This document shows, one piece after another, positions 3,800 to 62,891 of a stretch of DNA of 64,000 nt. Within the stretch, counting starts at the first letter, position 1; the number at the start of each line of letters is the position of its first letter. The notes beneath the pieces are model-generated. The model was not told the origin of the DNA. It made no database searches and saw only the letters and a program-made list of their open reading frames with translations. Source of the stretch: Escherichia virus TH42; sequence record MT446413.1, one strand, 5' to 3'. The position numbers were made by a program, and so were the translations under genes.

Positions 3800-4057
3800 T
3801 CAATAGAAGGTGTGTGTAGAGTCGTCGTTCATAGATAACCAAACGAAGAAGACAATCACACAGAAAGCAATAATACCGAGAATTGCAAGGATTATAGTGT
3901 TAGCTAATGTGATATCTAACACGCTTTGCAGATACATAAAGAACTGTACGACACCACATATCATTAGCACGACACCAACAACAATGAGGAGCCAATATGT
4001 GCAGAGAAGGGCTGCATCCAATAGTGACACATATTTTGGATGATCTTTACGTTTCAC
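3800..4057 (-). CDS. putative membrane protein (85 aa)
   Basis: Track ORF with two long hydrophobic segments (LLCTYWLLIVVGVVLMICGVV; ILAILGIIAFCVIVFFVWL). Confidence 0.5.
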   Translation of the reverse strand: MKRKDHPKYVSLLDAALLCTYWLLIVVGVVLMICGVVQFFMYLQSVLDITLANTIILAILGIIAFCVIVFFVWLSMNDDSTHTFY

Positions 4058-4848: not shown

Positions 4849-5115
4849 TTACTTAGTAATAAAGACTGTCACCTTATCCATTACCCAGCCTATCAACATA
4901 AGTAAAGGTAAGAAGAGGATAAAGATCAGCATAAAAGGCCAGAAGAATATCACCGTCCAAATAGAGTATTCATCAGGCTTACCACTCCATGAGGAATGGA
5001 AGAAGTTGTAGAGTGTATTGGTTTTAAAGCACCATTTAACTACAATGGCTGCCAACCACCAACCAATAACATAAATCAGGAGGACATACGCTGCTGTAAC
5101 CATTGACCGTTCCAT
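4849..5115 (-). CDS. putative membrane protein (88 aa)
   Basis: Track ORF with three hydrophobic segments. Confidence 0.5.
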   Translation of the reverse strand: MERSMVTAAYVLLIYVIGWWLAAIVVKWCFKTNTLYNFFHSSWSGKPDEYSIWTVIFFWPFMLIFILFLPLLMLIGWVMDKVTVFITK

Positions 5116-8859: not shown

Positions 8860-9035
8860 TTGATTAACACCAAATCAGTACGACGTTCGAAGGAAGGAGA
8901 GGATTCACCATTCCACTGAACAAGATAACAGAGAACACCATCAATCGTTGTTCTCCGACGAATAACACCTGTTTGAGTACCGCCAACAAGGCGAACAGTG
9001 TGACCAGTGGTAAACTTAACCTTTGAGCGCATCCT
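8856..9035 (-). CDS. hypothetical protein (about 60 aa; start moved to internal Met)
   Basis: Track ORF 8856..9218 overlaps 9016..9321 in another frame; only the C-terminal part from MRSKVKF looks protein-like. Confidence 0.35.
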   Translation of the reverse strand, partial: RMRSKVKFTTGHTVRLVGGTQTGVIRRRTTIDGVLCYLVQWNGESSPSFERRTDLVLIK

Positions 9036-9321
9036 CTGTTTCCTCATTCTGGCGTTTAATTTCTTCAGTGAGTTGCTTATTGAGATCTTGAATACGCTTA
9101 ATCTCCCAACCCAAAGAAGCCAAACGATCATTACGTGCTTCAATTTGCTCCTGCATCTTAACCAATTTGGAACGAACATCAGCATTAAAGACTTCCTCTT
9201 GCTTAAGAAGGAACTCATAACGACGCTTCCAGCTTGCTGACTTATTACTTAAAGCAATAAATCCCAGAGTAGAAATCGTTACAGTGAGTACGAGAAGGAA
9301 CTTATAAACCTCTAAAGACAT
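9016..9321 (-). CDS. membrane-anchored coiled-coil protein (101 aa)
   Basis: N-terminal hydrophobic segment FLLVLTVTISTLGFIAL followed by charged helical sequence. Confidence 0.5.
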   Translation of the reverse strand: MSLEVYKFLLVLTVTISTLGFIALSNKSASWKRRYEFLLKQEEVFNADVRSKLVKMQEQIEARNDRLASLGWEIKRIQDLNKQLTEEIKRQNEETEDALKG

Positions 9322-14689: not shown

Positions 14690-15031
14690 TTACGGATTGG
14701 TGCAAGTGCCGTTACCGGATGATATTTCGTTCATCGACTCATCGAACAACGTCATACTAGACCGCATCATGTGATCAATAGTAATTTGTTTGCCTGTAGC
14801 TTCGTTAACAAGCATCGCATATTTGCTATCAACAACCTTGTTGTCGTAGTCATTCAGGTCAATCAATACTACCTTGCTGGACTTCTTGCCAGTGTCGTAA
14901 TTTTCCATAAGGTAGGTACATTGCAGGCCATCGAGATTAGCCTCATTGAATACGGCAGCATAAGACACGGAAGAAACAGCGAACAAGGCAGCACATACAG
15001 CTAATTTAATTTTCATAATCCAATCCTCCAA
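14690..15031 (-). CDS. putative secreted protein (113 aa)
   Basis: N-terminal signal-peptide-like MKIKLAVCAALFAVSSVSYAA. Confidence 0.5.
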   Translation of the reverse strand: MEDWIMKIKLAVCAALFAVSSVSYAAVFNEANLDGLQCTYLMENYDTGKKSSKVVLIDLNDYDNKVVDSKYAMLVNEATGKQITIDHMMRSSMTLFDESMNEISSGNGTCTNP

Positions 15032-16285: not shown

Positions 16286-16443
16286 ACTACAGTCGCAACT
16301 ATATATTAAAGGAAAAACATGTCAACCACTTATTTTCAAACTATTTCATAACTCATTGAATCTAAAAGGAATTTAATTTACTAAACTTTCTTACTCAGAG
16401 GTACAGCTTACTAACAGAATGTTACTTTATAACGCTTATAGAA

Positions 16444-17038
16444 CGGGTAGCAGATCAACGGTAACGACAGATGGGTAGAACGTGCCGCATAGGTTAGCCA
16501 ATGGGTAAGAAGCCTAACGAGGAAGGGGAAACGGGTAGGATATAATGTAAGTTAGTTACAGGTAACAGGTCAGACCATGCGGGAGTTAATTACCAGTCAA
16601 ATAATTTACTCAAACAACAAAAGAAAAAGACCAACAGCACGCTGAAAAAGAAAAAGATTAAAAGAAAGGATTAACATAATCACTTAAGTAAACAATAACC
16701 AGTCTAAACATACATACATCAATAATCCACTCATAAATAATCACATAAGTTATTACATTCAAACTATGGGGAGTGTGTGGGTTGATATAATTGCATGGTG
16801 TTACCATGTGGGTATCATTAATGTTCTTACTATTAATACCGGTTAGTTATAGTCTTCTATTAGTATGCCTGTACAGTACATCAGAGTCTAGCCTTTCATC
16901 CCTTCTCAACATGAGTAAGAGAAATACGGGTAGGAAATCACTGGTTAGATATACATGGGTAGATTCGCATTACTAGATAATGCTCATGGGTAAATAATGC
17001 ATGTCTAATATCAATGGGTAGGGTATTTATGGGTAGGT
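16444..17038 (+). repeat. iteron-like array of (A/C)(T/C)GGGTA(G/A) motifs in the divergent intergenic region
   Basis: Copies at about 16444, 16471, 16501, 16531, 16926, 16956, 16985, 17013, 17029; more ATGGGT(G/T) copies at 17408-17520; no ORF of 60 aa or more across 16290-17230 on the block strands. Confidence 0.55.
16542..16549 (+). promoter_or_regulatory. ATAATGTA motif (candidate phage promoter element)
   Basis: One of seven (T/A)(G/A)TAATGTA occurrences lying in intergenic or gene-end DNA and oriented with downstream genes. Confidence 0.2.
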
Positions 17039-17233
17039 GTGCCACTGAACGCAGATAGGGCAAGGCTTAGAGCTTAAAGGCTGATTGATTTCCTAAAGGC
17101 GATTGCATTCCCTATAACCCTTTTTTAAATGAGGACTCCCCCTTTTACCAAAACACGCTCGGAGGGGCTAGGTCCACTCGGTCAAATCAGAATTTTAAAC
17201 CCTTATATATAACTATATGCCCCAACGTTAGTT

Positions 17234-17425
17234 GTGGATTTAAGAGTGAGGAACAACTTTATGTGGAAATTGAAGATGATTATCAGGCAGATTAAATGTA
17301 ATCACGAGTACTACCCAATCCGGATATCGAGAGGTGATGAACGGTTACATGCTTATTACAAGAGTACATGGAGGTGTGCAGATTGTGGTAAGGTTAAGAA
17401 TAGTAAATGGGTGGATAGGCCTTAA
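17234..17425 (+). CDS. small zinc-ribbon-like protein (63 aa)
   Basis: C..H....C..C pattern; first plus-strand ORF after the divergent region. Confidence 0.4.
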   Translation: MDLRVRNNFMWKLKMIIRQIKCNHEYYPIRISRGDERLHAYYKSTWRCADCGKVKNSKWVDRP

Positions 17426-17547
17426 CATGACATGGCCTTTATGAAGTCCCCTTTACATCAGCGTACATGGGTTCATACATGGGTGGGCCTTTAGATGAGT
17501 AAGCCTTTATGGGTTGATCACTCTCGTTTATCAGAGGAGATATAAAA

Positions 17548-17796
17548 ATGATTCTAGACTTTTTATCAGAGCTGCTTCCTTACTTCCGCACTGAAAGATG
17601 TGCATTTGTATTTGATGAAGGGGAGGAGGTATTGAGTTGTTTGGGTAGATTAGTAGACCTAGATGACGATGAAGATTTTGATGCTACGATGGATATTAGT
17701 TCATTGGGCTGGTTGTACATGAGATGCTTTGTAACCTACAAGGCTGAGACGTTTAAAGACTATCGTTATAACACGGAAGGAGAGAATGATGAATAA
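17548..17796 (+). CDS. hypothetical acidic protein (82 aa)
   Basis: Track ORF with GGAG-type RBS upstream. Confidence 0.45.
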   Translation: MILDFLSELLPYFRTERCAFVFDEGEEVLSCLGRLVDLDDDEDFDATMDISSLGWLYMRCFVTYKAETFKDYRYNTEGENDE

Positions 17797-18442
17797 TATG
17801 ACAGGAACTAATACACTGAATGCAATCTACGAGAACATGGGATGTAAAGGCGAGGTTGTTTACAATGGTAATCTCCGTCCCTTATCAGAGGACACTCTCT
17901 ATCTGAATCGTGTTCATGAAACCACTGGAGGTAAATCCCGAGTTGAGATGGTAAAACAATTGGCTCATGGTTCTGTGTATGGTCATGCTCCTTCAACCCG
18001 TGAACTATGGGAAAGTTTGATTCCTCGTACAGAAGCTAAAGATGTGAAAGATTATTTTACTGTAGCAAAAGAAGTTAAACGCAAGTGTCCATCCAATTTA
18101 GAAGTTGTTCCGTATGTATCTGACAAACATGCACACCTACCGGATTATGCCCGTGAGATGATTGAGATGATAGAAGAAGCTGAGTATGAAGCTCTGAATA
18201 ATTATTTAAATTCGAAAGATCAGTGGTCACGTAATGTAGTAATTGATGAAGAAGGTAATGAAGTAGTTACGTGGGTACATGCTAGTGAACAAGCTCTGGA
18301 CCCCGAGCTTGAAGAATACAAAAAATTTTTGGCGTCCTCTTCTTTTGATGTAGAGAATGACAAATCTGTTCCAGTGACTTGGGAAGGTGAAACTGTAGCT
18401 CTCCAGACTTTGTTCAACCTACACGTAGGTAATGTAGATTAA
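17786..18442 (+). CDS. hypothetical protein (218 aa)
   Basis: Track ORF on block strand. Confidence 0.55.
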   Translation: MMNNMTGTNTLNAIYENMGCKGEVVYNGNLRPLSEDTLYLNRVHETTGGKSRVEMVKQLAHGSVYGHAPSTRELWESLIPRTEAKDVKDYFTVAKEVKRKCPSNLEVVPYVSDKHAHLPDYAREMIEMIEEAEYEALNNYLNSKDQWSRNVVIDEEGNEVVTWVHASEQALDPELEEYKKFLASSSFDVENDKSVPVTWEGETVALQTLFNLHVGNVD

Positions 18443-18507
18443 TAAAAGGTGTTGCCTCCTCTAGTGGGAGGCTTTTTGTTATAACGATAATGTAGAAGGA
18501 GTATAAG

Positions 18508-24259: not shown

Positions 24260-25318
24260 ATGGCAAATCCAACTTTATTTGTATCTTACGACCAGAACGG
24301 TAAAAAACTTTCTTTTGCTAACTGGATTTCTGTCCTCTCTCCGCAAGATACTCCGTTTGTGTCTATGACTGGTAAAGAGTCTATCAACCAGACTATTTTC
24401 AGCTGGCAGACCGATGCACTGGCAAGTGTTGATGCTAACAACGCACACGTTGAAGGCTCTCGCGCTGATGACGGTGAAATGCAACCGACTGTTATCAAAT
24501 CTAACGTAACTCAGATCCTGCGTAAAGTAGTTCGTGTTTCTGATACTGCTAACACCACCGCTAACTACGGTCGTGGTCGTGAACTGATGTATCAGCTGGA
24601 GAAGAAAGGTAAAGAGATTAAACGTGACCTCGAGAAAATCTTGCTGTCCGGTCAGGCTCGTACCGACGTTCTGGCTGACCAGTATCTGACTAACTCAGCA
24701 GCTGATCCTGCTCTGGCTGGTCTGAATGACACTCATGCAGCTCGTAAGACTGGTGCTTTCCAGTTCCTGTGTGCCCATGGTGGTCTGTCTGGTAGCGTTG
24801 TTGATAAGACTAAGAACGGTCCTGCTGACCCGGATACCGGTGCAGTAACTGTTAAAGTTGCACAGAACGCATCTAACCCTACCACTAACGTAGGTTTTGA
24901 TGAAGCAGATATCTTTGATATGACCCTTCAGCTGTATACCGCAGGTTCTGAAGCTGATATCATCATGATTAACCCTGCTCACGCTAGCGTTTTCGCTAAG
25001 CTGCAGGAAAACTCTGTTGGTTCTCGTCAGCGTATCTTTGAGAACACTAAACAATTCATCTACGAAGTTAATAGCATCACCGACCCGCTGGGTCAGAGTT
25101 ATAAAATCATCGTTAACCGTTGGATGCCTACTGATGCAGTTTACTTCTTCCGTAGCTCTGATTGGACGCAGATGGTTCTTCGTGCACCGAAGCGTACTGA
25201 ACTGGCTAAAGACGGTTCTTACGAGAAGTGGATGATCGAGATGGAAGTTGGTCTGCGTCACCGCAACCCGTATGCTTCCGGTGTTCTGTTCACTGCTGCG
25301 GGAAAGGTAGCGGCGTAA
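24260..25318 (+). CDS. major capsid protein
   Basis: 352 aa, strong RBS, head-module position, frameshift signal at 3' end. Confidence 0.75.
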   Translation: MANPTLFVSYDQNGKKLSFANWISVLSPQDTPFVSMTGKESINQTIFSWQTDALASVDANNAHVEGSRADDGEMQPTVIKSNVTQILRKVVRVSDTANTTANYGRGRELMYQLEKKGKEIKRDLEKILLSGQARTDVLADQYLTNSAADPALAGLNDTHAARKTGAFQFLCAHGGLSGSVVDKTKNGPADPDTGAVTVKVAQNASNPTTNVGFDEADIFDMTLQLYTAGSEADIIMINPAHASVFAKLQENSVGSRQRIFENTKQFIYEVNSITDPLGQSYKIIVNRWMPTDAVYFFRSSDWTQMVLRAPKRTELAKDGSYEKWMIEMEVGLRHRNPYASGVLFTAAGKVAA

Positions 25319-25339
25319 CAGTTGACAGCGTAACTGTTA
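25300..25339 (+). promoter_or_regulatory. programmed -1 ribosomal frameshift signal
   Basis: Slippery heptamer G_GGA_AAG (X_XXY_YYZ in capsid frame) at 25300-25306, 10 nt before capsid stop; 7-bp hairpin AACAGTT/AACTGTT at 25318-25339. Confidence 0.55.
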
Positions 25340-26121
25340 GCCCTGCGTCAGTGGCAAGTCTACTGACCGGGGCTACCCAACAGTTTACAGCTCAAGCAGA
25401 ACTAAGCGACGGCTCCACATCAACTACTGGCTTTGATTGGTCAGTATCCGGTGGTGGGGCTATTTCTGCTTCTGGACTGTTCACTGCTCCGGGTTCGCCT
25501 CAAACCGCTGATATCACAGTGACTGCTACGCTTAAAGGTGTATCAAGTACTGCCGTTATTTCGGAAATTAAAGCTCCAATCCCTGACCCAGCTTCCATTG
25601 CTGTAACTGGGGGTGGTCTAACTGGTGATACTCTCACCATAACTGTTCCAGATGCTACCAGCCTGACTGCTTCTGTATCTCCTGCTGGTGCACCTCAAGG
25701 TGTTACTTGGGAAATTGCAGATCCGACTAAGGCTACGGTAACAACTGCTGGTCGTGTAACTGCTGTTGCAGCAGGTAGCACTACCCTTACAGTTAAATCT
25801 TCTACTAAACCTTCTGTCACTAAAGTGATTAATGTTGTTGTCAACCCCCAGCCTCCAACTATCGCGGCTAAAGCTGCTATTACTGGAAAATCTGGTGGAG
25901 ACAGTGTCGCTTTTACAGACATGTTTACTGTTCAACGCTCAGCTGCTAGTGACTATAATTTTGTAGTAACTCCATCTGCTGCTGGTACAGTGAATGCTGC
26001 TGGTCAGCTCACTTTAGCTGGTACGGCTAGCGGTAACGTAACTGTTAAAGCTACTCATAAAACTCAGACCTCAGTAACTGCAACTTCTACTATCACTGTT
26101 GTGGAATCAGGGTTACCCTGA
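25300..26121 (+). CDS. Ig-like domain C-terminal extension of capsid protein (-1 frameshift product)
   Basis: -1 frame is open from the slippery site to 26121; Thr/Ser/Val/Ala-rich beta-strand-like sequence typical of Ig-like decoration domains; the Met at 25228 lies inside the capsid gene and is unlikely to be an independent start. Confidence 0.55.
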   Translation, partial: GKGSGVTVDSVTVSPASVASLLTGATQQFTAQAELSDGSTSTTGFDWSVSGGGAISASGLFTAPGSPQTADITVTATLKGVSSTAVISEIKAPIPDPASIAVTGGGLTGDTLTITVPDATSLTASVSPAGAPQGVTWEIADPTKATVTTAGRVTAVAAGSTTLTVKSSTKPSVTKVINVVVNPQPPTIAAKAAITGKSGGDSVAFTDMFTVQRSAASDYNFVVTPSAAGTVNAAGQLTLAGTASGNVTVKATHKTQTSVTATSTITVVESGLP

Positions 26122-26183
26122 GAACTGACCTAGGTTCTACAGTGTTCAAAACTTACACCATTAAATCTGGTGCTTAAAACTAA

Positions 26184-26213
26184 GGCTGCCTTCGGGTGGC
26201 CTTTTCTCATTTT
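26184..26213 (+). terminator. rho-independent terminator after capsid/Ig gene
   Basis: GGCUGCC-UUCG-GGUGGCC followed by UUUUCUCAUUUU. Confidence 0.6.
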
Positions 26214-26234: not shown

Positions 26235-26242
26235 GTAATGTA
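26235..26242 (+). promoter_or_regulatory. GTAATGTA motif (candidate promoter element)
   Basis: 43 nt upstream of ATG of 26278..27024, between terminator and RBS. Confidence 0.25.
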
Positions 26243-26277
26243 TTCTCTTTGTCTATACATAACTAGGAGGACACACT

Positions 26278-29712: not shown

Positions 29713-31890
29713 ATGTCTAGAGAGTTAATGCCCAAGTCTGGGATAATGATGCCTCATGTTGTAGTATCACGAGATGCTGCTGTTGTCGGTGTATCTACTG
29801 TTGATGGTGCCGCTGGCGCTATCGACCTAACTAATAAATATTTACAGAAGACTGCAGCTGAAAACACCTATATGACAAAAACTGAAGGTGCTACTAAGGT
29901 TTATGTTTCAGACTCTATTGCCCCTATTATGGAAGGTGCTCTGTTTAAATCTGATCCTTTTGTAGCTAATGATGTACCATTCCGTGCTGCTGGGGCTAAT
30001 GGTGTAGAGTCTGTCGATATGATTAAAGTTACACCAGAGAACACTATCAAAATCGGTAGCTACGCTTCTTCTGTTCAGGGTGTAGAAGTTCACACTGCTG
30101 GTCGTCTTCAGGTTGTGGATTTGAATGACGGTGGTGTAGAAACTAAATATCCTGTCTACTCAAAACGGTATCGTCCTGAGATTGATGAACTTCCTTTTGC
30201 AGCGATCGGTTCATATGTCAAGGATTCTAAAGGACGCACTATTGGTGTAACTCGTACTGGTATCAACTCTGATATAACTCAGATGACTCAGAAAGTAACC
30301 TTCACACAACCAGTAACTGTTGCAGATGCTGTAGGAGATTATGATGCAGTTACCTACCGTCAACTTAAGAATCAGGGTGGTGGTTCTGGTGGTCCTACCA
30401 TGAGTGGTATCTCCAACTTTGGTATTGGTGATTTCCATCTTCGTGATAGTCGTGCTTTCATTCCTGCATTCGAAGTTGTATCCGATGGTCAGCTACTGAA
30501 TCGTGCTGATTACCCTGATCTTTGGGCTTATGCCCAGCTGTTAACTCCTATCACAGATGCTGCTTGGTTGGCTGATGCACAGCAACGAGGTAAATATTCA
30601 ACTGGTGATGGTTCTACTACCTTCCGTGTTCCTGATAGGAATGGTGTTCAGAGTGGCTCTCTGAAAGAACTCTTTGCTCGTGGTGATGGTGGTAATAGTA
30701 GTAATAATGGAATGGCTTATGATGCGGCACTTCCTAACATCGTAGGTTACACTGCCCACACTCTTTTAACTGCTGCGAGTAATCAAGGACAGGTTGCTAC
30801 CGATGGAGCTTTTACCTCTACAACCTCAACCTCAGGTGTTTGGCCTTTGTCTGGCGGCGGCGGTCTTTATACCAACATTCAGCTTAACGCTAACAACAGT
30901 GATGCTACTTATGGTCGCTACGGAATCACAGCGAATGCTATCCCTCGTAACTTCATTGGTGTTTGGACTATCCGTGCTCATGGTGGGTTTGTAGCAGCTA
31001 ATACTTCTTGGGCTGTTATTAACAGTGATACCTCTCGACCTTCAGCTGGTTCAAAAGCGACTGGTGGTTCTATCTTATCTCAGTATAAAATAGGCTCTGA
31101 TGTAGAAGCTGAGACTTACTTGAAAACTGATGCTTATATCAACGGAACTTACTACGGAGTTATTGGTGTTATTAACAAAACCAAAGGAGTGACTTCTGAG
31201 CTAACCTTTGGTGATGATGGCATCCTAAACTCTAACAAATACAGAGCAAGGCAAGTCTCGGGTTTGAGTTGGAATAATACAGGAGTTGAGAAGGGTACTT
31301 ATGCAATTGAAGATGTTAACATAGGAACTAACTATAACTTCAACAGTATAATCAGTGCTGCACAATCTTCTAATTCTGGTTACAGAACTTCTACTCATAT
31401 CGGTCAAATTCATAATGACGGTGGCTCTTTTGCTCAATCCTGCTGGCATGTATCAGGAGATGAAACTAACCAATATGGTGTTCGTCTTGCCATCCAACCT
31501 AACTATGAAGATATTTATTACTACTTCTGGGCACCAGATGTTTCTCGAACCTACACTCTTCAGAAGAATGCTGTCTCTGATGAACGTCTTAAGCGTGACA
31601 TTTACGATCTTGATGCGTCTAGGCCTATTGAAATTTTGAAAGGTTTGACTTTCCGTTCCTTTGTCTATAAGGATGATGAAAAGCAGAGAACTCGTCGTGG
31701 TGTTATTGCACAGGAGGCAGAGAAGGTAGAACCTCTGTATGTTAAGACGATTAACTTCTATGACCCTGATGGTAGCAAGAAAGATCAGAAACAGCTGGAT
31801 ACAACTCCTATGCTTCTTGATACAATGGCGGTAGTTCAAGACCTCCTAAAACGTGTTGAAGAGTTAGAAGCTAAACTGGCTGCTAAGTAA
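29713..31890 (+). CDS. tail fibre/tailspike with C-terminal intramolecular chaperone domain
   Basis: 725 aa; C-terminal SDERLKRDIYDL...GLTFRSF...RRGVIAQE resembles the self-cleaving chaperone domain of endosialidase-type fibres (recalled, not searched). Confidence 0.6.
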   Translation: MSRELMPKSGIMMPHVVVSRDAAVVGVSTVDGAAGAIDLTNKYLQKTAAENTYMTKTEGATKVYVSDSIAPIMEGALFKSDPFVANDVPFRAAGANGVESVDMIKVTPENTIKIGSYASSVQGVEVHTAGRLQVVDLNDGGVETKYPVYSKRYRPEIDELPFAAIGSYVKDSKGRTIGVTRTGINSDITQMTQKVTFTQPVTVADAVGDYDAVTYRQLKNQGGGSGGPTMSGISNFGIGDFHLRDSRAFIPAFEVVSDGQLLNRADYPDLWAYAQLLTPITDAAWLADAQQRGKYSTGDGSTTFRVPDRNGVQSGSLKELFARGDGGNSSNNGMAYDAALPNIVGYTAHTLLTAASNQGQVATDGAFTSTTSTSGVWPLSGGGGLYTNIQLNANNSDATYGRYGITANAIPRNFIGVWTIRAHGGFVAANTSWAVINSDTSRPSAGSKATGGSILSQYKIGSDVEAETYLKTDAYINGTYYGVIGVINKTKGVTSELTFGDDGILNSNKYRARQVSGLSWNNTGVEKGTYAIEDVNIGTNYNFNSIISAAQSSNSGYRTSTHIGQIHNDGGSFAQSCWHVSGDETNQYGVRLAIQPNYEDIYYYFWAPDVSRTYTLQKNAVSDERLKRDIYDLDASRPIEILKGLTFRSFVYKDDEKQRTRRGVIAQEAEKVEPLYVKTINFYDPDGSKKDQKQLDTTPMLLDTMAVVQDLLKRVEELEAKLAAK

Positions 31891-31896
31891 AGGACT

Positions 31897-31914
31897 GCCC
31901 CTTCGGGGGCTTTT
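31897..31914 (+). terminator. rho-independent terminator
   Basis: GCCCC-TTCG-GGGGC followed by TTTT. Confidence 0.7.
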
Positions 31915-31983
31915 AGAAGTTAAATTAGTGAATAGGTAATGAAACTAATATATCTAAAAGGATAAACACATAGGAGAAAGAAG

Positions 31984-32202
31984 ATGAAATTAATGAAACA
32001 AATCACATATGGACTGGCTTGCTTAGGTACCGGTTTTGTAGTATCTACAGCAATCCCTGTTAGTGCTGTCAGCTCCCATTCAGTTATTGAAGCTCCAGTA
32101 GAAAAACTTAGCGCTGAATGTAAGCAAAGAACTATCCAGAATAATCTCGTAGTTATTTGTCCAGATGCCCAATCTTCAGCGTTGAGAAAAGTTCTACCTT
32201 GA
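31984..32202 (+). CDS. small membrane protein, holin candidate (72 aa)
   Basis: Strong RBS, one hydrophobic segment, immediately upstream of lysozyme gene. Confidence 0.35.
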   Translation: MKLMKQITYGLACLGTGFVVSTAIPVSAVSSHSVIEAPVEKLSAECKQRTIQNNLVVICPDAQSSALRKVLP

Positions 32203-32230
32203 TACAATAATAAAAATAGAGGAGGTCAAG

Positions 32231-32722
32231 ATGGACGCTATCGCATTGCCACCTGTACAGCATAATTTAAGTCCTGAGGGTTTGGAGTTCATTATGAAGC
32301 ATGAAGGTATGAGAACCCGTGCTTATCAAGACTCCGCTGGCATATGGACTATATGTGTCGGAGCAACGCGCGATATGAATGGGTATCCAGTCAGAAAAGG
32401 ATTAACGTATTCTATAGAGGATTGTTTGATATTACTAGATCGTGACACTCAAGACTCTGTTCGTGCTACTCAGAAAAATATAAGGGTTCCTTTGTTTACT
32501 AATGAGTTTGATGCTTTAACCTCTTTCAACTTTAATGTTGGTGGTACAGCTCTCGCTACTTCTAAACTAAGGAAAGTGATCAACGGAGATGTTAGAGGTG
32601 ATGTTTACTCTGAGTTTTTGCGTTGGGATAAAATAACAGTCAGAGGTGTAAAACAACAGAGTCCGGGACTTCACAACCGAAGGGTTGCAGAAGCAGACCT
32701 ATACACCACAGGTAAATACTAA
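32231..32722 (+). CDS. lysozyme (GH24, T4-lysozyme-like)
   Basis: HEGMRTRAYQDSAGIWTICVGAT matches the E...D...T catalytic-region pattern of lambda R / T4 e-type lysozymes. Confidence 0.8.
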   Translation: MDAIALPPVQHNLSPEGLEFIMKHEGMRTRAYQDSAGIWTICVGATRDMNGYPVRKGLTYSIEDCLILLDRDTQDSVRATQKNIRVPLFTNEFDALTSFNFNVGGTALATSKLRKVINGDVRGDVYSEFLRWDKITVRGVKQQSPGLHNRRVAEADLYTTGKY

Positions 32723-32734
32723 TGGAGGTGCCTT

Positions 32735-33538
32735 TTGGCTATTGAAACTACAGCGGTAGTAACTACCGATTTAAACCCCCTGTACCCTCGTGACAGGGAT
32801 TATATTTATGAAGGGGCGGCTCAACTCCGCCTTATCAAACAAGTCTTGATTAACACATTCCCTAACATCACTGAACCAGTGAACCTTTCTTCTGAATCCT
32901 TTAAGGCTTTGTCAGAGAAAATCACTTTTACTGGTGATGCTATGGATGTTGGTAATCTGATGATTAAAAACCTGACTCCGGGCACTGGTGATAAAGATGC
33001 TGTAACCAAAGGTCAGATGGAAGCTTTCATGTTGAATTGGATGCAGAATAAACTATATCGTATTGGTGCTTACTACATCACTGAAGAAGATATTAACCCC
33101 GGTGATTCTAGCTCTCTCGGCTTTGGCTCTTGGGCTAAAGTTACTGGTGTTGTTATGGGTACTGGTGTTGTCAACCCCGATGGGTCTGTTCCTAACGCCC
33201 AACGTGTTGAGTTCCAAGCAGGCGGTACAGGTGGTCGTGTGTTTAATACAGTTCGTACTGAGAATATGCCTCTAACTACAATCAATGGTTCTAGTTTCCA
33301 AGTTAGCTCCTACTCTCACGCACACAACATTACGATGGGCCGAGGGGATGCTAGTGGTCATAACAGCAGCCCTAACTGGTATAGTCCGGGTGGTGGTTAT
33401 ACTCAAGTAACTGACACAAACACTCACTCACACTCAATCTCAGGTTCTGTTAGTTTTGGTTATGATGACATTTCTCGTCAACCTATCAACACATTACCGC
33501 CATTCCGAGCAGCACATATTTGGAGACGTATTAGCTAA
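32735..33538 (+). CDS. putative tail protein (267 aa)
   Basis: TTG start 6 nt after GGAGG; located in tail module. Confidence 0.45.
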   Translation: MAIETTAVVTTDLNPLYPRDRDYIYEGAAQLRLIKQVLINTFPNITEPVNLSSESFKALSEKITFTGDAMDVGNLMIKNLTPGTGDKDAVTKGQMEAFMLNWMQNKLYRIGAYYITEEDINPGDSSSLGFGSWAKVTGVVMGTGVVNPDGSVPNAQRVEFQAGGTGGRVFNTVRTENMPLTTINGSSFQVSSYSHAHNITMGRGDASGHNSSPNWYSPGGGYTQVTDTNTHSHSISGSVSFGYDDISRQPINTLPPFRAAHIWRRIS

Positions 33539-33547
33539 GGAGGTAGC

Positions 33548-36500
33548 ATGGCTCTCTATCCAATTAAATCACTAGGCGCAGTTGGGGTTATCGCTGACCA
33601 AGCACCTACTGACTTAGCACCAAATGCTTTCACTAACGCTATTAATGCTCGGTTTGTTGAGCAGAGGGTCTTTAAGACGGGGGGCAATGCCCCTCTTTCT
33701 TATGTAGACGAAGATAAAGATCTGACTCCTCTCTCATTCCTTTCAATGCCTTTCGACTATTATAGCGCAGGTAATAGCTTTCTTGTGGTAGGTACAGATA
33801 AGAAACTGTATAAACTTACCGACGAGAGTTTAACTGATATCAGCCGTAAGGTTGCTACAGCGACAAAGAAAGCATCAGCGACAATTAAGATTTATCCAGT
33901 AGTCTCAAATATTGTTCCTAAAGAGACTTCTGTATCTATGAATTTTAACCAGACCAAGATTCTCGAAGTTGAAGTCACCCCTACAGATGCTCAAAATGCT
34001 AATCTAGTTTGGGAAGTAAGCAACTCTTCTTACGGCAGTATTGAAGTTGACCCTACTGACTCCAAGAAGGCTACCCTAACTTCTAAGTCTGTTGAAGGTA
34101 ATTTAGTTGTGACAGTGAGCACATCTGATGAATCTATCTCAGCTCAGATTGCAGTTAATATCATTGATGGTGATTCAGGTATCTATTTGAGCCAAGACAC
34201 TTTGACTATGCGTAAAGGTGGTACATCAACCCTTACAGCAATTACAGGCAAACCGTCTGTAACTTGGTCTTCCTCTAACCCATCGTTAGTTTCTGTTTCT
34301 CCTAATGCTAATACAAAGACAGTTGTTCTTACAGCTCTTGGAGAAGGACAGGTAACTATAACTGCTGATAATGAGACAAAGACTGCATCTTGTATAGTAA
34401 CAGCAATACCTCAAATTGATAGCATCACATTAAGTCAGACAGATATTCAAATGAGCCGTGGTACTCAGTACATCCTAACTGCAACAGTTAGTCCAGCTAA
34501 CGCACCCAACCAAACAATCACTTGGACTTCTTCTAATACCAACATTGCTACAGTAAGTGGTACAGGTACAGAAGCTACAATAACTGGATTGCTTGCAGGG
34601 TATACAGAGATTACAGCAGTTACAGCGGAAGGAGGTCGTTCAGCAGTTTGTACTGTACGTGTTGATTTATCTTCTCGTCTGGCAAGTAGGGCTATGTCAG
34701 CAATGACTATCACTACAGAAGCTCCTGTAGAAGAACCAATGGTTGGCTCAGAAGAGGTAACATACTTCGACACTGATAACATTGGTATTGATACGACAGG
34801 AATGGCAGAAGGGAATAACTTCTACGACTACTCTAACGTCATGGACTTGGAAGGTTTTGGTAGAGCAGCAATGCTTGCTAATGATCCACCTTTGACTGGA
34901 GTTACTCTTGATGTTATTGATGCCTCTCTTGATGTAGGTGAAGAGATTGTTATCACAGCTACAGCATCTCCTACTGGAAGCTATACTTACAAGTGGACAG
35001 TTGATAAGAGTGGTTATGTTTCTACTACTTCTACAACTGACTCAACTTTGAAACTTACTGCTATTCGTAAGGGTGAGGTTAAAGTGACTTGTACTGTAAG
35101 CCAGATGGTTCAGAAAGACTATGATGCGTTTGAAGATTATCCTTGGTATCATGCGATCATCTCTAACTGTGCAGTAGCAACTACTCACTACGAAACTCCT
35201 CAGGTTAAGGAATTCGATTCTGAATACTTCACTGATCTTCCGGGATGGGGTGAGCAGACGGTTGTTGATGCAGATGGTAATCCTTCTGTTAAGAAGTATA
35301 ACTGGAAATGTGAACGAGTGAGAGCTTTTAACAATAGACTGTTTGCTCTGAATATGAGAGAGTCTAATGCCTCTGGTGTTACTACTCACTACCCTCTTCG
35401 TTTGCGTTGGTCTAACTTTGCAGAGGAAAACAAAGCCCCTCAGCTTTGGGATGATTATGCATATGACCGAGCAGTGAGTTCTGACCTAGCAGCTAACATC
35501 GTAGGACAGACAGAAGCTCTTGAGAATGGTTATGCAGGATATATTGATTTGGCTGACTCTAATGGTAGTTTGTTAGATGTTCTTCCTCTGAAAGATTATC
35601 TGTTCGTTTACACTGAGTTTGAAACTTATATCGGCTCTCCTACCAACAACACCTATCAGCCTTTGATGTTTAAAAAGCTGTTTAACGATTCAGGAATACT
35701 TGCTCCTGAGTGTGTGGTGGAAGTTGAAGGTGGTCACTTTGTGGTAACTCAGAACGACGTCATTCTACACAATGGTGCTTCTAAGAAATCTATTGCTTCT
35801 AACCGAGTGAAGAACATGCTCATTAATGAGATTTGTCTGGTGAACCCAATTGCTACACGAGTTCATCTTCATCAGGATAAGAAAGAAGTATGGGTTCTTT
35901 ATGTAGGTCCGGGTGAGCCTAAGGAAAGTTTTGCCTGTACTAAAGCAGCAGTATGGAATTATGAGTTCGACACTTGGTCTTTCCGTACGATTCCTTATTC
36001 TTATTGTATCGGTCTTGTTGATCCTCCGGTTCTGGAACGCGGTCCTATCTGGGCTGATTTCCAAGAGATCACTTGGGATGACCCTTCGATTGACAAACTG
36101 GTGTGGAGAAAAGATGCAACTAACTTCCGTCAGCGAGTTACAATCATAGGTTCTTTCTTGAAAGGATTCTACCAAGTTGATATAGGAGCTTTGGATTATA
36201 TCTATGACAGAACAAACGATGTGGTTATAGAGAAGCCTCTGGAAATGAGACTAGAGAGAACGGGGATTGATTTTGATAACGTCACTAATGAATGGAATCA
36301 GAAACACATTAACCGATTTAGACCTCAAGTAACAGGAACGGGGACTTATACTTTTGAAGCAGGTGGTAGTCAATTCTCTAATGAGTATGGACACAACCAC
36401 TCTACTAAAGAGTTTAGGGTTGGTGTGGATCGTCACGTAGCAGTCAGACTGAACCATCCATACCTATTCTATAATGTTATAGATAATGATGTTAACAGTA

Positions 36501-36553
36501 ATGCGTCTATGAATGGTTTAACCATAGAGTTTGCTGTTGGCGGTCGAAGATAA
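33548..36553 (+). CDS. large tail/structural protein with Ig-like repeats (1001 aa)
   Basis: Several Thr/Ser/Val-rich beta-strand repeats in N-terminal third; own terminator. Confidence 0.6.
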   Translation: MALYPIKSLGAVGVIADQAPTDLAPNAFTNAINARFVEQRVFKTGGNAPLSYVDEDKDLTPLSFLSMPFDYYSAGNSFLVVGTDKKLYKLTDESLTDISRKVATATKKASATIKIYPVVSNIVPKETSVSMNFNQTKILEVEVTPTDAQNANLVWEVSNSSYGSIEVDPTDSKKATLTSKSVEGNLVVTVSTSDESISAQIAVNIIDGDSGIYLSQDTLTMRKGGTSTLTAITGKPSVTWSSSNPSLVSVSPNANTKTVVLTALGEGQVTITADNETKTASCIVTAIPQIDSITLSQTDIQMSRGTQYILTATVSPANAPNQTITWTSSNTNIATVSGTGTEATITGLLAGYTEITAVTAEGGRSAVCTVRVDLSSRLASRAMSAMTITTEAPVEEPMVGSEEVTYFDTDNIGIDTTGMAEGNNFYDYSNVMDLEGFGRAAMLANDPPLTGVTLDVIDASLDVGEEIVITATASPTGSYTYKWTVDKSGYVSTTSTTDSTLKLTAIRKGEVKVTCTVSQMVQKDYDAFEDYPWYHAIISNCAVATTHYETPQVKEFDSEYFTDLPGWGEQTVVDADGNPSVKKYNWKCERVRAFNNRLFALNMRESNASGVTTHYPLRLRWSNFAEENKAPQLWDDYAYDRAVSSDLAANIVGQTEALENGYAGYIDLADSNGSLLDVLPLKDYLFVYTEFETYIGSPTNNTYQPLMFKKLFNDSGILAPECVVEVEGGHFVVTQNDVILHNGASKKSIASNRVKNMLINEICLVNPIATRVHLHQDKKEVWVLYVGPGEPKESFACTKAAVWNYEFDTWSFRTIPYSYCIGLVDPPVLERGPIWADFQEITWDDPSIDKLVWRKDATNFRQRVTIIGSFLKGFYQVDIGALDYIYDRTNDVVIEKPLEMRLERTGIDFDNVTNEWNQKHINRFRPQVTGTGTYTFEAGGSQFSNEYGHNHSTKEFRVGVDRHVAVRLNHPYLFYNVIDNDVNSNASMNGLTIEFAVGGRR

Positions 36554-36559
36554 CAACTA

Positions 36560-36580
36560 GGGAGCTTCGGCTCCCTTTTA
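36560..36580 (+). terminator. rho-independent terminator
   Basis: GGGAGC-TTCG-GCTCCC followed by TTTTATTGTTT. Confidence 0.7.
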
Positions 36581-38658: not shown

Positions 38659-39453
38659 ATGGATAGGATTTTAGGAGTTTCAGAACTAGATCCACTGGTT
38701 CAACAAGCTGCTAAGAAGTATGGTATTCCTGCTGCTCTTGTTCATGCGGTCATTCAGAGGGAGTCTAGTGGTAAGCCCTCTGCCGCTTCAGGAACAGGGC
38801 CAGTAGGATTGATGCAGATTAGTAAAGGTTTGGCTAAAGATTATGGTTACAAATTAGAAGATCGTCTAGACCCAGCTAAGAATATCGACATGGGTGCTAG
38901 ATATATCAGGGACAACCTAAAAGCGTTTAATGGTGATGTAAGAAAGGCAATGGTAGGTTATTCAGAAGGGACTGGTGGAGCAAAACAAATGTTCGCTGGT
39001 AAGAGAGGGTTTACACCTCAAGCTCTCGATTCTATGAATAATAAAAACTTCCTCCCTTTCTATACAGCCAATGATGCTGCTGGTCAGGTAGCTAATCCGG
39101 TTGGGGCTTTACAGTCAGCACAGCCAGTGAACCAGTTCTCTCCTGAATTGGTTACTAAAGAAGGTGCTGCTAATTCCCCTACTCAAGCTGAGATTGCTGC
39201 TGCTAAGACAGGTGCTCTAGGTGGTTCTCCTGCTGAGTTCTATTCCGATGCTGTAGCAGAGACTGGGGAAGATCAGAAACCACAACAGAACTTCGGTAAT
39301 GCTGCACTAGCTGCTGCTGCGATGTTAGCAGGGAAGGCTCCTAAGTCTCAAACAGTTCAGAGAGCACATGCACCAACTCAAGCAGGTTCTCAATACAGCC
39401 CACAGACACAAGCCGTTCTTAGACGTTTGGCAAGTGTTGGTGTTATTAAATAA
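38659..39453 (+). CDS. lytic transglycosylase domain protein (putative internal virion protein)
   Basis: QRESSGKPSAASGTGPVGLMQI matches the SLT catalytic motif (E-S....A.S..GA.GLMQ). Confidence 0.7.
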   Translation: MDRILGVSELDPLVQQAAKKYGIPAALVHAVIQRESSGKPSAASGTGPVGLMQISKGLAKDYGYKLEDRLDPAKNIDMGARYIRDNLKAFNGDVRKAMVGYSEGTGGAKQMFAGKRGFTPQALDSMNNKNFLPFYTANDAAGQVANPVGALQSAQPVNQFSPELVTKEGAANSPTQAEIAAAKTGALGGSPAEFYSDAVAETGEDQKPQQNFGNAALAAAAMLAGKAPKSQTVQRAHAPTQAGSQYSPQTQAVLRRLASVGVIK

Positions 39454-41512: not shown

Positions 41513-43144
41513 ATGCAACAAACATCTTACGCGTATCTTCGTAGTCAAGACCCGCGAAATCAGATTTATGGTGATCGTCAGAGAGGGGTTACGGCCTCTC
41601 CTTACATGTCCAGACCTGCTGGTCCAGCAGCTGACTTATCTATGTATCAGCGTCCAGCTCTTCCTGCTGTCTTAGGAGCTACAGTTGAACAAGCACAGGC
41701 TGACCAAGAAGCTATGATGAATCCGGGATTCAAGCAACGTCTTTATGAACAGCAGGGTATTTCCACTCCTACTAGTTTGGCTGGTATTGATGCTGGCATT
41801 AATCCGGGTGATGAAGGCTCTATGATGCCTGCTGATGTAGCTCCTGCTTCTAGCCCTCTTCCGGTTACAGCTCCTGCTAAACCAATTGAAGAGTCGGATA
41901 AAGAGTTTGCCCCTGAACAAGTACAACAGGCACAAGGTGTCATGAATACTATCGCTTCTGGTGTTCCTCAGGGTGAAGGTATGAGTGGTGCTACTCGTGC
42001 TGCTGACCAAGAACGTGTGAATCAGGATATTCTTAAAGTTGCACAATCTAAGAACCCGGCAGATGCGTGGAAGACTATGCAGAAACAGCCTTTCTATCAA
42101 AACTCTAGTTTCTATACAGGATTGATGGGTGTGGGTCTTTCTATTATGTCTGGTAAATCTCCGATTGAAGCATTCCAGATTGGCTCTGGTATGGCATCTC
42201 AGGATGAAGCTAAACAACAATTAGAACTGAACCGTGATAACCTGATCGAACAAGGTTACTCTCAGGATTCTGTAGCTGCTGCTGTAGCTGCTGGTGACCC
42301 TTCTCTTCTGAAGATGCGTCAGATTAGTCCTCAAGAGAAGATGGCTCTAGCCGCTCAAGATGAAGCTCGTGCTAATCAAGAGTGGGATAGACGTCAACAG
42401 ATTCAAGAGAATTCGATGCGGGAACGTGCTGCTGAAACCCGTCGTGCTGCTGAACAACGTGCTGATGCTCAGTTTGAGAAGCAGAAAGAGTTGATTGGTT
42501 ATCGTGATCAAGTTAAGGCAGACCGTGCAGAACAAGCTGCTCAAAGTTTTAACTTTAACCCGAAAGAAGTTCGTCTTGCTCAGAACACTGCTGAAGGTAC
42601 GGTTGCTAAGCAATGGGCAGAGAAGGCAGGACTGTTTAACCAGTCTCATAAAGACTTGGATTTGGCAGACAAAGCAGTTAAGGATGGTGATTATCAGACT
42701 GCTCGTTCTGCGTACATGCAGGCTATCATGAACTCCGCGAGAGCTGAGATTGGTGCTAACCGTTCTCTGCAAGCTGATGACTTGTCACACTTCGCAGAAG
42801 ACCCATCCATTCTTGTTAAGGTAGGTAACACTTGGTCTCTTAAAGCTGGTTATCGTCCATCCGATGCCGCTCTTTCCTATGCCCGTAAGCAAGCAACTGT
42901 TGGTGCTTCTTCTGCTGAGAAAGGTGTTAAGGATTCTAAGAAAGCAACTATTGAAGCTTATGTTGGTTCTGGTATGGACAAGAAACGTGCAACTGCTCTT
43001 GTTAACCGAGCTATTCCTTCTGCTGGTTTCTATGACCCTCTCGGTGTATTCGAAGCAGAGTCTGAAGCAGCTGTTGGTGGTTCAGCAACCAATCCTAAAC
43101 TTAATGGTGCTTTGTCTTCTAACACTGATTGGATGACTCAGTAA
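41513..43144 (+). CDS. virion protein (543 aa)
   Basis: Track ORF with RBS, module position. Confidence 0.5.
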   Translation: MQQTSYAYLRSQDPRNQIYGDRQRGVTASPYMSRPAGPAADLSMYQRPALPAVLGATVEQAQADQEAMMNPGFKQRLYEQQGISTPTSLAGIDAGINPGDEGSMMPADVAPASSPLPVTAPAKPIEESDKEFAPEQVQQAQGVMNTIASGVPQGEGMSGATRAADQERVNQDILKVAQSKNPADAWKTMQKQPFYQNSSFYTGLMGVGLSIMSGKSPIEAFQIGSGMASQDEAKQQLELNRDNLIEQGYSQDSVAAAVAAGDPSLLKMRQISPQEKMALAAQDEARANQEWDRRQQIQENSMRERAAETRRAAEQRADAQFEKQKELIGYRDQVKADRAEQAAQSFNFNPKEVRLAQNTAEGTVAKQWAEKAGLFNQSHKDLDLADKAVKDGDYQTARSAYMQAIMNSARAEIGANRSLQADDLSHFAEDPSILVKVGNTWSLKAGYRPSDAALSYARKQATVGASSAEKGVKDSKKATIEAYVGSGMDKKRATALVNRAIPSAGFYDPLGVFEAESEAAVGGSATNPKLNGALSSNTDWMTQ

Positions 43145-43164: not shown

Positions 43165-43172
43165 TAATGTAT
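43165..43172 (+). promoter_or_regulatory. ATAATGTA motif (candidate promoter element)
   Basis: 45 nt upstream of ATG of the 1472-aa gene. Confidence 0.25.
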
Positions 43173-50726: not shown

Positions 50727-50951
50727 TTAAACTACACAGAACAAATACATTGCTGTGTCAGGACAAGGGATGGCTGTCTGAATACCACTTACCTTAATCC
50801 ACATATCTTCTTCAGGGTCGTAATAGGCCCAATAGGATTGATCTCCATCTACAAAGAATTTAAAAGTTCGTCCCCAAACCTGATTATTATATTCCCATAC
50901 TGCATGAAGTTGAGTAACACCTTCTGGTATTGTAAGTTCCGCTCTGATCAT
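50727..50951 (-). CDS. hypothetical protein (74 aa)
   Basis: Track ORF; 4-nt overlap with upstream gene. Confidence 0.4.
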   Translation of the reverse strand: MIRAELTIPEGVTQLHAVWEYNNQVWGRTFKFFVDGDQSYWAYYDPEEDMWIKVSGIQTAIPCPDTAMYLFCVV

Positions 50952-51208
50952 TGTATTCCTCTCTCCTTGAGAGCTTTCAGTAAACCATTATGGTTAGCAG
51001 CACAGGTTGTGTAGTTGTCCTGATACCACTCTAATGTTGTTGCAAATGCCGCTCCCTGTGCACTCTGAAGCAAAGGGAGATCAACATCACACTCAGCTTT
51101 TAGGTTTGTTGGTAAGGGCATTAGCTGCCTGCTGTTGTCGCTCGTTGAACAAGCTGACATACTCATCGCTAGCGCACACATTGTAAAAAACTGGCTTAGT
51201 CTTCTCAT
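50948..51208 (-). CDS. outer-membrane spanin (Rz1-like lipoprotein), putative
   Basis: ATG at 51208; signal peptide with Cys at position 20 (MSAC), Pro-rich mature part; start lies inside the i-spanin gene in another frame. Confidence 0.45.
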   Translation of the reverse strand: MRRLSQFFTMCALAMSMSACSTSDNSRQLMPLPTNLKAECDVDLPLLQSAQGAAFATTLEWYQDNYTTCAANHNGLLKALKERGIQ

Positions 51209-51440
51209 AATGCATCTCTTTGTAAACAGTTTCCGTGTTCTTCTTCCAGTTAGTTAAACTGGTTAGAACTTTCTTAGCTACTTCATCAGCAGCCTTAGCT
51301 CTCTCAATCTCAATCTCTTGTTGTTTCTTCTCTTGGTCAAGAGTGTTACTATCATTTCGATATTGTTCAAACTTCATTCCGCCAAAGAATACAAGAGCTG
51401 TAAAGACTAAGAAGCCGATATTGTTTTGAAGCTTTTCCAT
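51093..51440 (-). CDS. inner-membrane spanin (Rz-like), putative
   Basis: Track ORF starts at a GTG (51464) inside the upstream terminator; the ATG at 51440 with GGAG RBS is the likely start; N-terminal TM segment then coiled-coil. Confidence 0.5.
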   Translation of the reverse strand: MEKLQNNIGFLVFTALVFFGGMKFEQYRNDSNTLDQEKKQQEIEIERAKAADEVAKKVLTSLTNWKKNTETVYKEMHYEKTKPVFYNVCASDEYVSLFNERQQQAANALTNKPKS

Positions 51441-51452: not shown

Positions 51453-51476
51453 GAAAAAAGCCACCCGAAGGTGGCT
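51453..51476 (-). terminator. rho-independent terminator
   Basis: Perfect AGCCACC-CGAA-GGTGGCT hairpin with A6 on plus strand; between SSB-like gene and i-spanin. Confidence 0.7.
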
Positions 51477-52240: not shown

Positions 52241-52301
52241 ATTAATATTTCCTTATATAAATTTAAGATTGTTGCTCTCTTTGAGCGGTTGGTATACTAT
52301 A

Positions 52302-52309
52302 TACATTAC
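52302..52309 (-). promoter_or_regulatory. GTAATGTA motif (candidate promoter element)
   Basis: Minus-sense motif 62 nt upstream of the SSB-like gene ATG; same 10-mer ATACATTACA at 10991-11000. Confidence 0.25.
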
Positions 52310-53484: not shown

Positions 53485-53744
53485 TACAACAATTCTCTCT
53501 GTTTATTATTGATGACAGTCATCGCTGTGACTGGATTATTTGTTCCGAGATACTCTAGAACAGGTGGGCTACTAGCTGGTTTACCAGCCTCTACATAATT
53601 TTTAACCTTGCCACCTAGAACCGCTAAAGAAGCCTGAGCTTCGGCTTCATCAGTATGAACTCGGTCAACTGTCTTCTTTCCAATCGTGTAAGTGTGAACG
53701 TAAATCATTTTAATCCTTAATAACGAGTGTTGGTACGACTCCAA
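53484..53744 (-). CDS. hypothetical protein (86 aa)
   Basis: Track ORF on block strand. Confidence 0.45.
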   Translation of the reverse strand: MESYQHSLLRIKMIYVHTYTIGKKTVDRVHTDEAEAQASLAVLGGKVKNYVEAGKPASSPPVLEYLGTNNPVTAMTVINNKQRELL

Positions 53745-53902
53745 CCCTCAACGTAACAGCGACCACCTACAAACTTAGTAGGTGCATTAAACTCTTTTGA
53801 GATTCGAGTCTCGCAATCTTCTTTACTATAATCTCCAAGAGCATCCATCACCCAAAGAAATAGAGCAATGACAATAGACCAGATTAGGAACTTTTTCATC
53901 AT
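53717..53902 (-). CDS. small signal-anchored protein (61 aa)
   Basis: N-terminal hydrophobic segment FLIWSIVIALFLWVMDAL. Confidence 0.4.
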   Translation of the reverse strand: MMKKFLIWSIVIALFLWVMDALGDYSKEDCETRISKEFNAPTKFVGGRCYVEGWSRTNTRY

Positions 53903-62493: not shown

Positions 62494-62682
62494 CTATTCC
62501 TTGTTAATAAACAGGTTGATATGACGCTGGGTAGCAGGAACAACAATAAAAGATTTATACTGACCTTTTGCTAAGTCATGAGCAATCTTCTTTGTCTGAC
62601 CAAGACCCATCACACAGCCACTAACGATAATGGCATGTGCTTGTAATTCTTCAGGGAGGTTTAATTTCATTATGCAGTCCAC
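62494..62682 (-). CDS. hypothetical protein (62 aa)
   Basis: Track ORF abutting the redoxin gene. Confidence 0.4.
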   Translation of the reverse strand: MDCIMKLNLPEELQAHAIIVSGCVMGLGQTKKIAHDLAKGQYKSFIVVPATQRHINLFINKE

Positions 62683-62891
62683 AGGTGGAGAAGGAAAGGA
62701 ATAACAACAGAGAAAACTACCAGAGCAATGCTACCATGTTTAATAGGTTTGGCATCATTTGGATTTTCTTTAAGCATTTGCTTTTGAGCCAGATAAACAA
62801 TACCACCAACAAGAATTGCCCACACAGACCATACGATTGCTGAAAACATATTCACATCCTTATAAAGAAGTTCGCCCCACCTCTTAAACAA
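62670..62891 (-). CDS. small membrane protein, two TM segments (73 aa)
   Basis: Hydrophobic segments FSAIVWSVWAILVGGIVYL and IALVVFSVVIPFLLHLW. Confidence 0.45.
   Translation of the reverse strand: MFKRWGELLYKDVNMFSAIVWSVWAILVGGIVYLAQKQMLKENPNDAKPIKHGSIALVVFSVVIPFLLHLWTA

Follow-up and report, generated by a model that had tools for sequence, protein, structure and literature searches.

We propose, with rather more confidence than doubt, that Escherichia virus TH42 lyses its host by means of a gene pair lodged among its tail fiber genes, in which a 72-aa hole-former opens the way for a GH24 endolysin, together with spanins encoded at a distance. The pair was located in a window of 64,000 nucleotides, the whole stretch of record MT446413.1 analyzed here. 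The arrangement itself is already known in this phage group, and its value as a discovery is small; the identity of the small membrane protein carries most of the argument below.

Organization of the lysis locus

The small ORF (31984-32202, +; 72 aa) is a homolog of phiEco32 gp16 and SU10 gp14, for which the annotation is "holin." The lysozyme ORF (32231-32722, +; 163 aa; PF00959) is homologous to phiEco32 gp17 and SU10 gp15, and begins 28 nt past the end of the small ORF on the same strand. Each has a ribosome binding site, AGGAG at 31972-31976 for the small ORF and AGGAGG at 32220-32225 for the lysozyme. The upstream neighbor of the small ORF is the distal long tail fiber gene (29713-31890, +; phrog_6921, Peptidase_S74). 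Downstream of the lysozyme is the short tail fiber gene (32735-33538, +; Gp10_C, phrog_6465), whose TTG start lies 12 nt past the lysozyme stop codon, followed by the nozzle gene (33548-36553, +). The original prediction had placed a GH24 lysozyme and a small ORF with one transmembrane domain (TMD) at 31984-32722, between tail fiber genes on the plus strand, and this anatomy is borne out, the small ORF having one hydrophobic segment.

The phage is a coliphage of the Gordonclarkvirinae (phiEco32-like, C3 morphotype). With 2.1 kb around the locus as query, matches came from 96 phage records, all from Escherichia or Shigella phages of the phiEco32-like group, with TH34 as the best match (95% nucleotide identity). 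Kuravirus and Suseptimavirus account for all of the closest relatives, which share the five-gene order, and many of their records name the gene pair holin and endolysin. Read together, the YF01 annotation, which is structure-based, and the SU7, SU10, and phiEco32 records give the gene order as adaptor, proximal long tail fiber, distal long tail fiber, "holin," endolysin, short tail fiber, nozzle, needle, and ejection proteins, in which the distal long tail fiber through the nozzle correspond to phiEco32 genes 15-19. The same order is seen in phiEco32, SU10, SU7, YF01, EK010, and the most divergent metagenomic relatives found. The arrangement of the lysis genes is explicitly stated in three papers (PMC7881722, PMC9965538, PMC12733307), the last of which, on Kuravirus and dated 2025, includes in its list a far-off o-spanin on the complement strand along with holin and endolysin. 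The layout is therefore ordinary for the group, because the pair represents the already described lysis genes of phiEco32-like coliphages. The suggestion that it is unusual does not hold, as the same order is invariant and published throughout the phiEco32/Kuravirus group, and the lysis genes of T4 are also dispersed.

A horizontally acquired island was ruled out as there is no discontinuity in GC content or skew, with GC at ~0.40 throughout. Compared with the phiEco32 record, the window is circularly permuted, with minus-strand early genes at 1-16.3 kb and plus-strand late genes from 17.8 kb. The gene-poor gap between them (16300-17800) is probably where the genome ends lie, with the direct terminal repeat of ~190 bp known from the group. 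In the late region, a slippery heptamer, GGGAAAG, occurs at 25300-25306 (+), 12 nt before the major capsid stop codon, where the ORFs 24260-25318 and 25228-26121 overlap in different frames; the site matches a frameshift already published for phiEco32-like phages, by which an Ig-like extension is joined to the capsid protein. In the early region, two PHROG labels are doubtful: "DNA helicase" (phrog_12154) for a protein of 101 aa that combines a coiled coil with a TMD at its N-terminus (9016-9321, -), and "terminase" (phrog_13168) for a 113-aa protein with a signal-peptide-like N-terminus (14690-15031, -). Genes 116 and 125 of phiEco32 carry these labels as well in the RefSeq record.

The GH24 lysozyme

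The 163-aa protein matches PF00959 (Phage_lysozyme) over residues 23-154 of 163 (E = 1.8e-30; 106.3 bits against a cut-off of 22.3) and phrog_7 "endolysin" (6e-45). Its catalytic Glu-8x-Asp/Cys-5x-Thr motif lies in HEGMRTRAYQDSAGIWTI (E25, D34, and T40) and aligns with that of the endolysins 8app and 7m5i in the PDB, where the best matches were deposited as endolysins or lysozymes. The N-terminus reads MDAIALPPVQHNLSPEG; no hydrophobic 19-mer exceeded the threshold anywhere in 32231-32722, and the protein features neither a signal peptide nor a SAR segment. With no export signal of its own, the enzyme would depend on a holin for export. By these features it is most likely a true soluble endolysin.

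That the lysozyme might instead be a virion-associated tail lysin used at infection is suggested solely by its gene position, between the distal long and short tail fiber genes of a late operon, and we give this reading almost no weight. Studies of SU10, in which we verified that gp14 is the ortholog of the 72-aa protein and gp15 that of the lysozyme, bear directly on it. The proteome of a crude PEG precipitate (Table 2 of that study) includes gp11-13, gp16-18, and gp20-24, so that all neighboring products were detected, while gp14 and gp15 are absent; the particles had been prepared by PEG precipitation only and were crude enough to show DNA polymerase and sigma factor. Likewise, in a cryo-EM and mass spectrometry study the proteins named as virion components are gp6, 9, 11, 12, 13, 16, 17, 18, and 20-24; neither gp14 nor gp15 is mentioned anywhere, and the degradation of peptidoglycan at entry is attributed to the transglycosylase gp20. 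Coming from a relative, this is strong, though not absolute, negative evidence against the presence of the lysozyme in virions. The ortholog of gp20 and of phiEco32 gp22 in the window is an SLT-domain lytic transglycosylase encoded among the ejection protein genes (38659-39453, +), and by orthology it is the virion-borne wall-degrading enzyme; such an enzyme would leave no need for the GH24 protein in the particle. Furthermore, the lysozyme is a bare catalytic domain of 163 aa with no additional attachment domain, and its closest solved relatives point to the same conclusion. Of the two roles that the original prediction had left side by side, the endolysin is thus upheld by the E-D-T motif, the lack of a signal or SAR segment, and the absence of the ortholog from the SU10 virion inventories; the virion enzyme is not.

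The original prediction also allowed for a conventional holin-endolysin cassette elsewhere in the genome. No second cassette is annotated in complete phiEco32 or in the 1-45 kb portion of EK010, and the ~13 kb of genome beyond the window correspond to replication and amidoligase genes in the phiEco32 and EK010 counterparts. The absence of another cassette from these relatives indicates that 31984-32722 is the phage's lysis pair and not an extra copy. In practice, the GH24 enzyme can be treated as an endolysin, rather than a virion protein, when these candidate therapy phages are annotated or engineered.

The 72-aa candidate membrane protein

Codon comparisons show the small ORF to be a genuine gene that evolves under purifying selection. 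Relative to phiEco32, it carries 38 third-position and 9 second-position differences, and codon changes in its C-terminal part are 15 synonymous to 5 non-synonymous. An antisense ORF of 95 aa (31920-32207) was rejected, being unconserved and interrupted by stop codons in relatives. The protein matches phrog_11161 ("holin") over its full length (E = 5e-39), but this PHROG consists of the 72-aa family itself and its label is inherited annotation. Indeed, the "holin" label derives solely from gene position and has been propagated through about a hundred genome records without family support. Among the 23 members of the family, none has a Pfam match beyond noise at E <= 10; the 72-aa protein has no NCBIfam holin match and no detectable homology to T4 T or RI. 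Our search of the literature found no lethality, lysis-timing, or membrane-hole experiment on the family.

A word-index search recovered 23 clusters of the family, each at least 65% identical, and only two further true relatives, 46% and 35% identical to the protein of the window, came from a profile search of 1.84 billion representatives. The other three profile hits were rejected, two as repeat-protein artifacts and one as a match to the N-terminus only. Both distant relatives retain the fiber-small gene-lysozyme order, and the 46% relative, which lies on a farther-reaching contig, also retains the short fiber and nozzle genes downstream. The family was found only within one phage group, and the small gene and the lysozyme gene are adjacent in all relatives, these two included.

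The protein begins with a short, basic N-terminus (MKLMK), followed by one hydrophobic stretch at residues ~7-28 with a mean Kyte-Doolittle hydropathy of 1.8. The hydrophobic core is about 18-22 residues long and 50% Gly/Ala/Ser/Thr. Invariant residues in or beside the segment are Q6, Y9, G10, C13, G17, and A28, the first five of which persist down to 34% identity. All 11 of the diverse members compared share, without variation, the MKxxK n-region, hydrophobic core, and (P)-V/T-x-A28 motif; the motif, at the end of the segment, fits a signal peptidase I site (A28 invariant, V/T at -3). A Pro-rich linker at residues 29-40, after A28, is the most variable part of the protein. The C-terminal region, KLSxxCKQRTIQNNLVVICPD, is conserved and includes the invariant C46 and C59. 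Conservation is strongest across C46-KQRTIQNNLVVI-C59, i.e., in the predicted periplasmic, Cys-flanked part rather than the helix. An AlphaFold (AF2) model of low confidence (pLDDT 54) places a helix at residues 3-23 and a beta-hairpin flanked by C46 and C59.

The topology is most likely N-in/C-out, because K2 and K5 stand at the N-terminus and a net-acidic flank lies past the segment, in keeping with the positive-inside rule, and because the cysteines are paired. A lipoprotein or o-spanin reading was discarded: the lipobox [LVI][ASTVI][GAS]C is unconserved, with A, V, I, L, or S as the residue before C13, and the invariant C13 is preceded by just 12 residues. Similarly, a lambda-like dual-start (M1/M4) antiholin motif was rejected, as position 4 is variable (M/T/V/L/I/A).

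Probable holin function and alternative explanations

We regard a small type-II holin as the fairly probable identity of the 72-aa protein. Because the lysis pair sits in the late tail operon, it would be expressed together with the virion genes, presumably by co-transcription. The 163-aa soluble, cytoplasmic muramidase would act as the endolysin, with the wall out of its reach unaided. The 72-aa protein would take up an N-in/C-out orientation in the inner membrane, and its single Gly/Ala/Ser/Thr-rich helix may oligomerize through the conserved Y-G-x-x-C-x-x-x-G face. At a set time, the oligomers would open the membrane and let the endolysin escape, in the manner of a miniature type-II holin like T4 T. 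The two-component spanin, with its genes 18 kb off in the middle-gene cluster, would then disrupt the outer membrane. We favor the holin because a soluble endolysin needs one and the 72-aa gene is the sole membrane protein gene strictly linked to the endolysin.

The main competing explanation, possible though doubtful in our judgment, is that the 72-aa protein does not form holes. Its hydrophobic segment would be a cleavable Sec signal or a SAR domain, and its product a periplasmic lysis factor, either a ~44-aa disulfide-stapled beta-hairpin peptide or a released full-length form, that acts as a T4 RI-like regulator or in another capacity; the true holin would be encoded elsewhere, with candidates such as 62670-62891 (-; two TMDs), 53717-53902 (-), 3800-4057 (-), and 4849-5115 (-). 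The N-terminus does have the n-h-c architecture of a signal peptide, from the MKxxK start to A28 with V/T at -3, and the contrast between the variable linker past A28 and the highly conserved, Cys-flanked modeled hairpin would suit an oxidizing periplasm. Hydrophobicity, too, falls within the range of signal peptides and SAR domains. On a crude Hessa-type insertion sum, the family scores ~+3.2 kcal/mol, near the +2 to +3.4 kcal/mol of cleavable signal peptides and SAR domains and unlike the stable anchors T4 T (-1.4) and lambda Rz (-2.5); however, lambda S105 also scores poorly (+4.3), which makes this a weak test. The lack of a curated holin family match and the presence of other conserved small membrane proteins in the genome further agree with a periplasmic factor. 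Nevertheless, the invariant Q6, Y9, G10, C13, and G17 are unexpected in the core of a disposable signal peptide and suggest, instead, a sequence-specific helix-helix interface. The need of the soluble endolysin for a holin also weighs against this explanation, as only the 72-aa membrane protein gene is linked to the endolysin in every relative, and the alternative holin candidates lie in early and middle gene clusters, do not have the charged C-terminal tail typical of holins, and are nowhere annotated as lysis proteins. A more specific version, that the Kuravirus "holin" is a SAR- or signal-type protein with a functional periplasmic beta-hairpin closed by a C46...C59 disulfide and that the real holin is among the other small membrane proteins, we consider quite unlikely. 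If it were so, Cys13 in the releasable segment could, by analogy with P1 Lyz, serve as a thiol switch; another possibility is that the protein is a periplasmic sensor of lysis timing similar to RI.

It is also conceivable, but in our view highly unlikely, that the 72-aa protein is unrelated to lysis and represents a moron between the fiber genes that functions in periplasmic superinfection exclusion or receptor masking. A hairpin and a conserved intergenic block precede the small gene in a moron-like layout, the protein has periplasmic-type features, and its family is restricted to one phage group. Yet the small gene is always found beside the lysozyme gene (28 nt), even in the most divergent relatives; one contig (P0025) has only 9 nt after the upstream gene, with neither hairpin nor block; and base composition, at a GC of ~0.40 throughout, shows no sign of recent acquisition.

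The window encodes several other small membrane or secreted proteins, all on the minus strand (62670-62891, 53717-53902, 3800-4057, 4849-5115, and 2269-2436). They include a two-TMD protein of 59-73 aa (phrog_9296); a 61-aa protein (phrog_14089) built like the 72-aa protein, with a hydrophobic segment at its N-terminus and two cysteines; and two early-region, two-TMD proteins without a PHROG match. These are candidates for holin, antiholin, or exclusion functions.

The distant spanin pair

The spanins were predicted to lie on the opposite strand about 18 kb from the lysozyme, and a pair is indeed found there on the minus strand at 50948-51440, 18.2 kb past the lysozyme stop codon. The i-spanin (51093-51440, -) matches phrog_1152 "Rz-like spanin" (4e-36), features an N-terminal TMD and a coiled-coil periplasmic domain, and likely starts at the ATG at 51440 (MEKLQ...). 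The 86-aa o-spanin (50948-51208, -) begins with a lipoprotein signal, MRRLSQFFTMCALAMSMSA, directly before the cysteine of the lipobox (MSA followed by C). With their genes overlapping by 116 nt, the two have the overlapped architecture of a two-component spanin. They adjoin the phage sigma factor gene in the middle-gene cluster, as in phiEco32 genes 36-39, where the spanins are genes 38-39.

In phiEco32, gene 38 (NC_010324, 35273-35446) is annotated only as a hypothetical protein of 57 aa, a form of the o-spanin that starts after the lipoprotein signal. Given the 86-aa ORF of the window, with its textbook signal and lipobox, the o-spanin start looks to be annotated too late in the relatives. 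In EK010 (region 42035-42707), the i-spanin gene is directly followed by one for an HNH endonuclease, which may have divided the spanin pair.

Transcriptional context

According to two papers (PMC4331800; PMC8948821), the phage sigma factor gp36 recognizes a single element, tAATGTAtA, and experiments had mapped promoters ahead of genes 6, 13, 26, 40, 58, and 68. Elements of the gp36 type occur in the window at 18488 (+), 26236 (+), 43165 (+), 52300 (-), and 58786 (-), where phiEco32 P6, P13, P26, P40, and P58 were mapped; the element at 43165, for example, corresponds to P26. The element at 26236-26244 (+), TAATGTATT, has one mismatch to tAATGTAtA and lies before the adaptor gene in the position of P13; it is probably the late promoter of the transcription unit that holds the lysis pair. 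An exact element, TAATGTATA, at 52300-52308 (-) lies upstream of the gene 40 homolog in the position of P40 and probably serves gene 40, the spanins, and the sigma factor gene as a gp36-dependent promoter. We infer that the lysis pair falls inside a P13-type late unit and the spanins downstream of a P40-type promoter, and that both would be gp36-dependent.

Directly before the small gene, no canonical gp36 promoter was found within one mismatch, the nearest plus-strand elements being those at 26236 and 43165, and a sigma-70 scan returned nothing above the shuffled expectation. Two other features occupy this interval. A 19-nt block, GTAATGAAACTAATATATC, at 31936-31954 (+) lies 30-48 nt upstream of the small ORF and is invariant across genera between variable flanks, being unchanged in phiEco32, SU10, YF01, SU7, and the window. 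The more divergent contig L005 has gAATGTAcA at this site, in agreement with all strongly conserved positions of tAATGTAtA, the gp36 element. The block may represent a variant or internal promoter, or a regulatory site, before the lysis pair. The second feature is a conserved hairpin, GCCCC-TTCG-GGGGC followed by TTTT, at 31897-31914 (+), directly after the stop codon of the distal tail fiber gene. It fell short of our terminator scan, which required five T in eight, and is a candidate for a weak terminator or attenuator, or for an RNA-stability element.

A comparable hairpin, GCCACC-TTCG-GGTGGC-TTTTTT, is found immediately before the i-spanin gene (51454-51475, -). The presence of UUCG-tetraloop hairpins with T runs before both lysis loci suggests a dependence on terminator read-through. 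Two more UUCG-loop hairpins with T-rich tails follow other late genes (26182-26203 and 36559-36576).

Comparison with known lysis systems

The closest counterpart of the window is the phiEco32 pair gp16/gp17 (gp14/gp15 in SU10 and gp12/gp13 in YF01), to which the window orthologs are 72% and 86% identical in amino acid sequence. Both pairs encode 72 and 163 aa, with the distal long tail fiber upstream and the short tail fiber and nozzle downstream. They differ in sequence divergence only, apart from the circular permutation of the window record.

Among more distant systems, the N-terminal segment of the 72-aa protein resembles those of the SAR endolysins P1 Lyz and R21 and of T4 RI in being rich in Gly/Ala/Ser/Thr and weakly hydrophobic. 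P1 Lyz has a cysteine inside its SAR segment, and the 72-aa protein likewise has one in its hydrophobic segment (C13), in addition to its predicted periplasmic Cys pair. In contrast to the SAR endolysins, the segment in the window resides on a 72-aa protein with no enzyme domain, and the lysozyme has no SAR segment.

T7 offers a precedent among podophages: its small holin gene 17.5, for a protein with one TMD, directly follows tail fiber gene 17 in the late region, with the amidase (3.5) and spanins (18.5/18.7) elsewhere. The sequences are unrelated, and the T7 endolysin, an amidase, is encoded far from the holin.

Finally, the soluble GH24 lysozyme of T4 is partnered by a holin with one TMD, N-in/C-out topology, and a periplasmic domain. 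By topology, the 72-aa protein would resemble either a miniature T4 T or the SAR-domain antiholin RI; its predicted periplasmic part is ~44 aa relative to ~160 aa in T. As in the window, the T4 lysis genes (t, e, the spanin genes pseT.3/pseT.2, and the antiholin gene rI) are dispersed rather than gathered in a single cassette, and the spanin genes are not near holin t and endolysin e (PMC6139136). In the window, the endolysin gene adjoins that of the holin candidate, whereas the T4 counterparts are unlinked.
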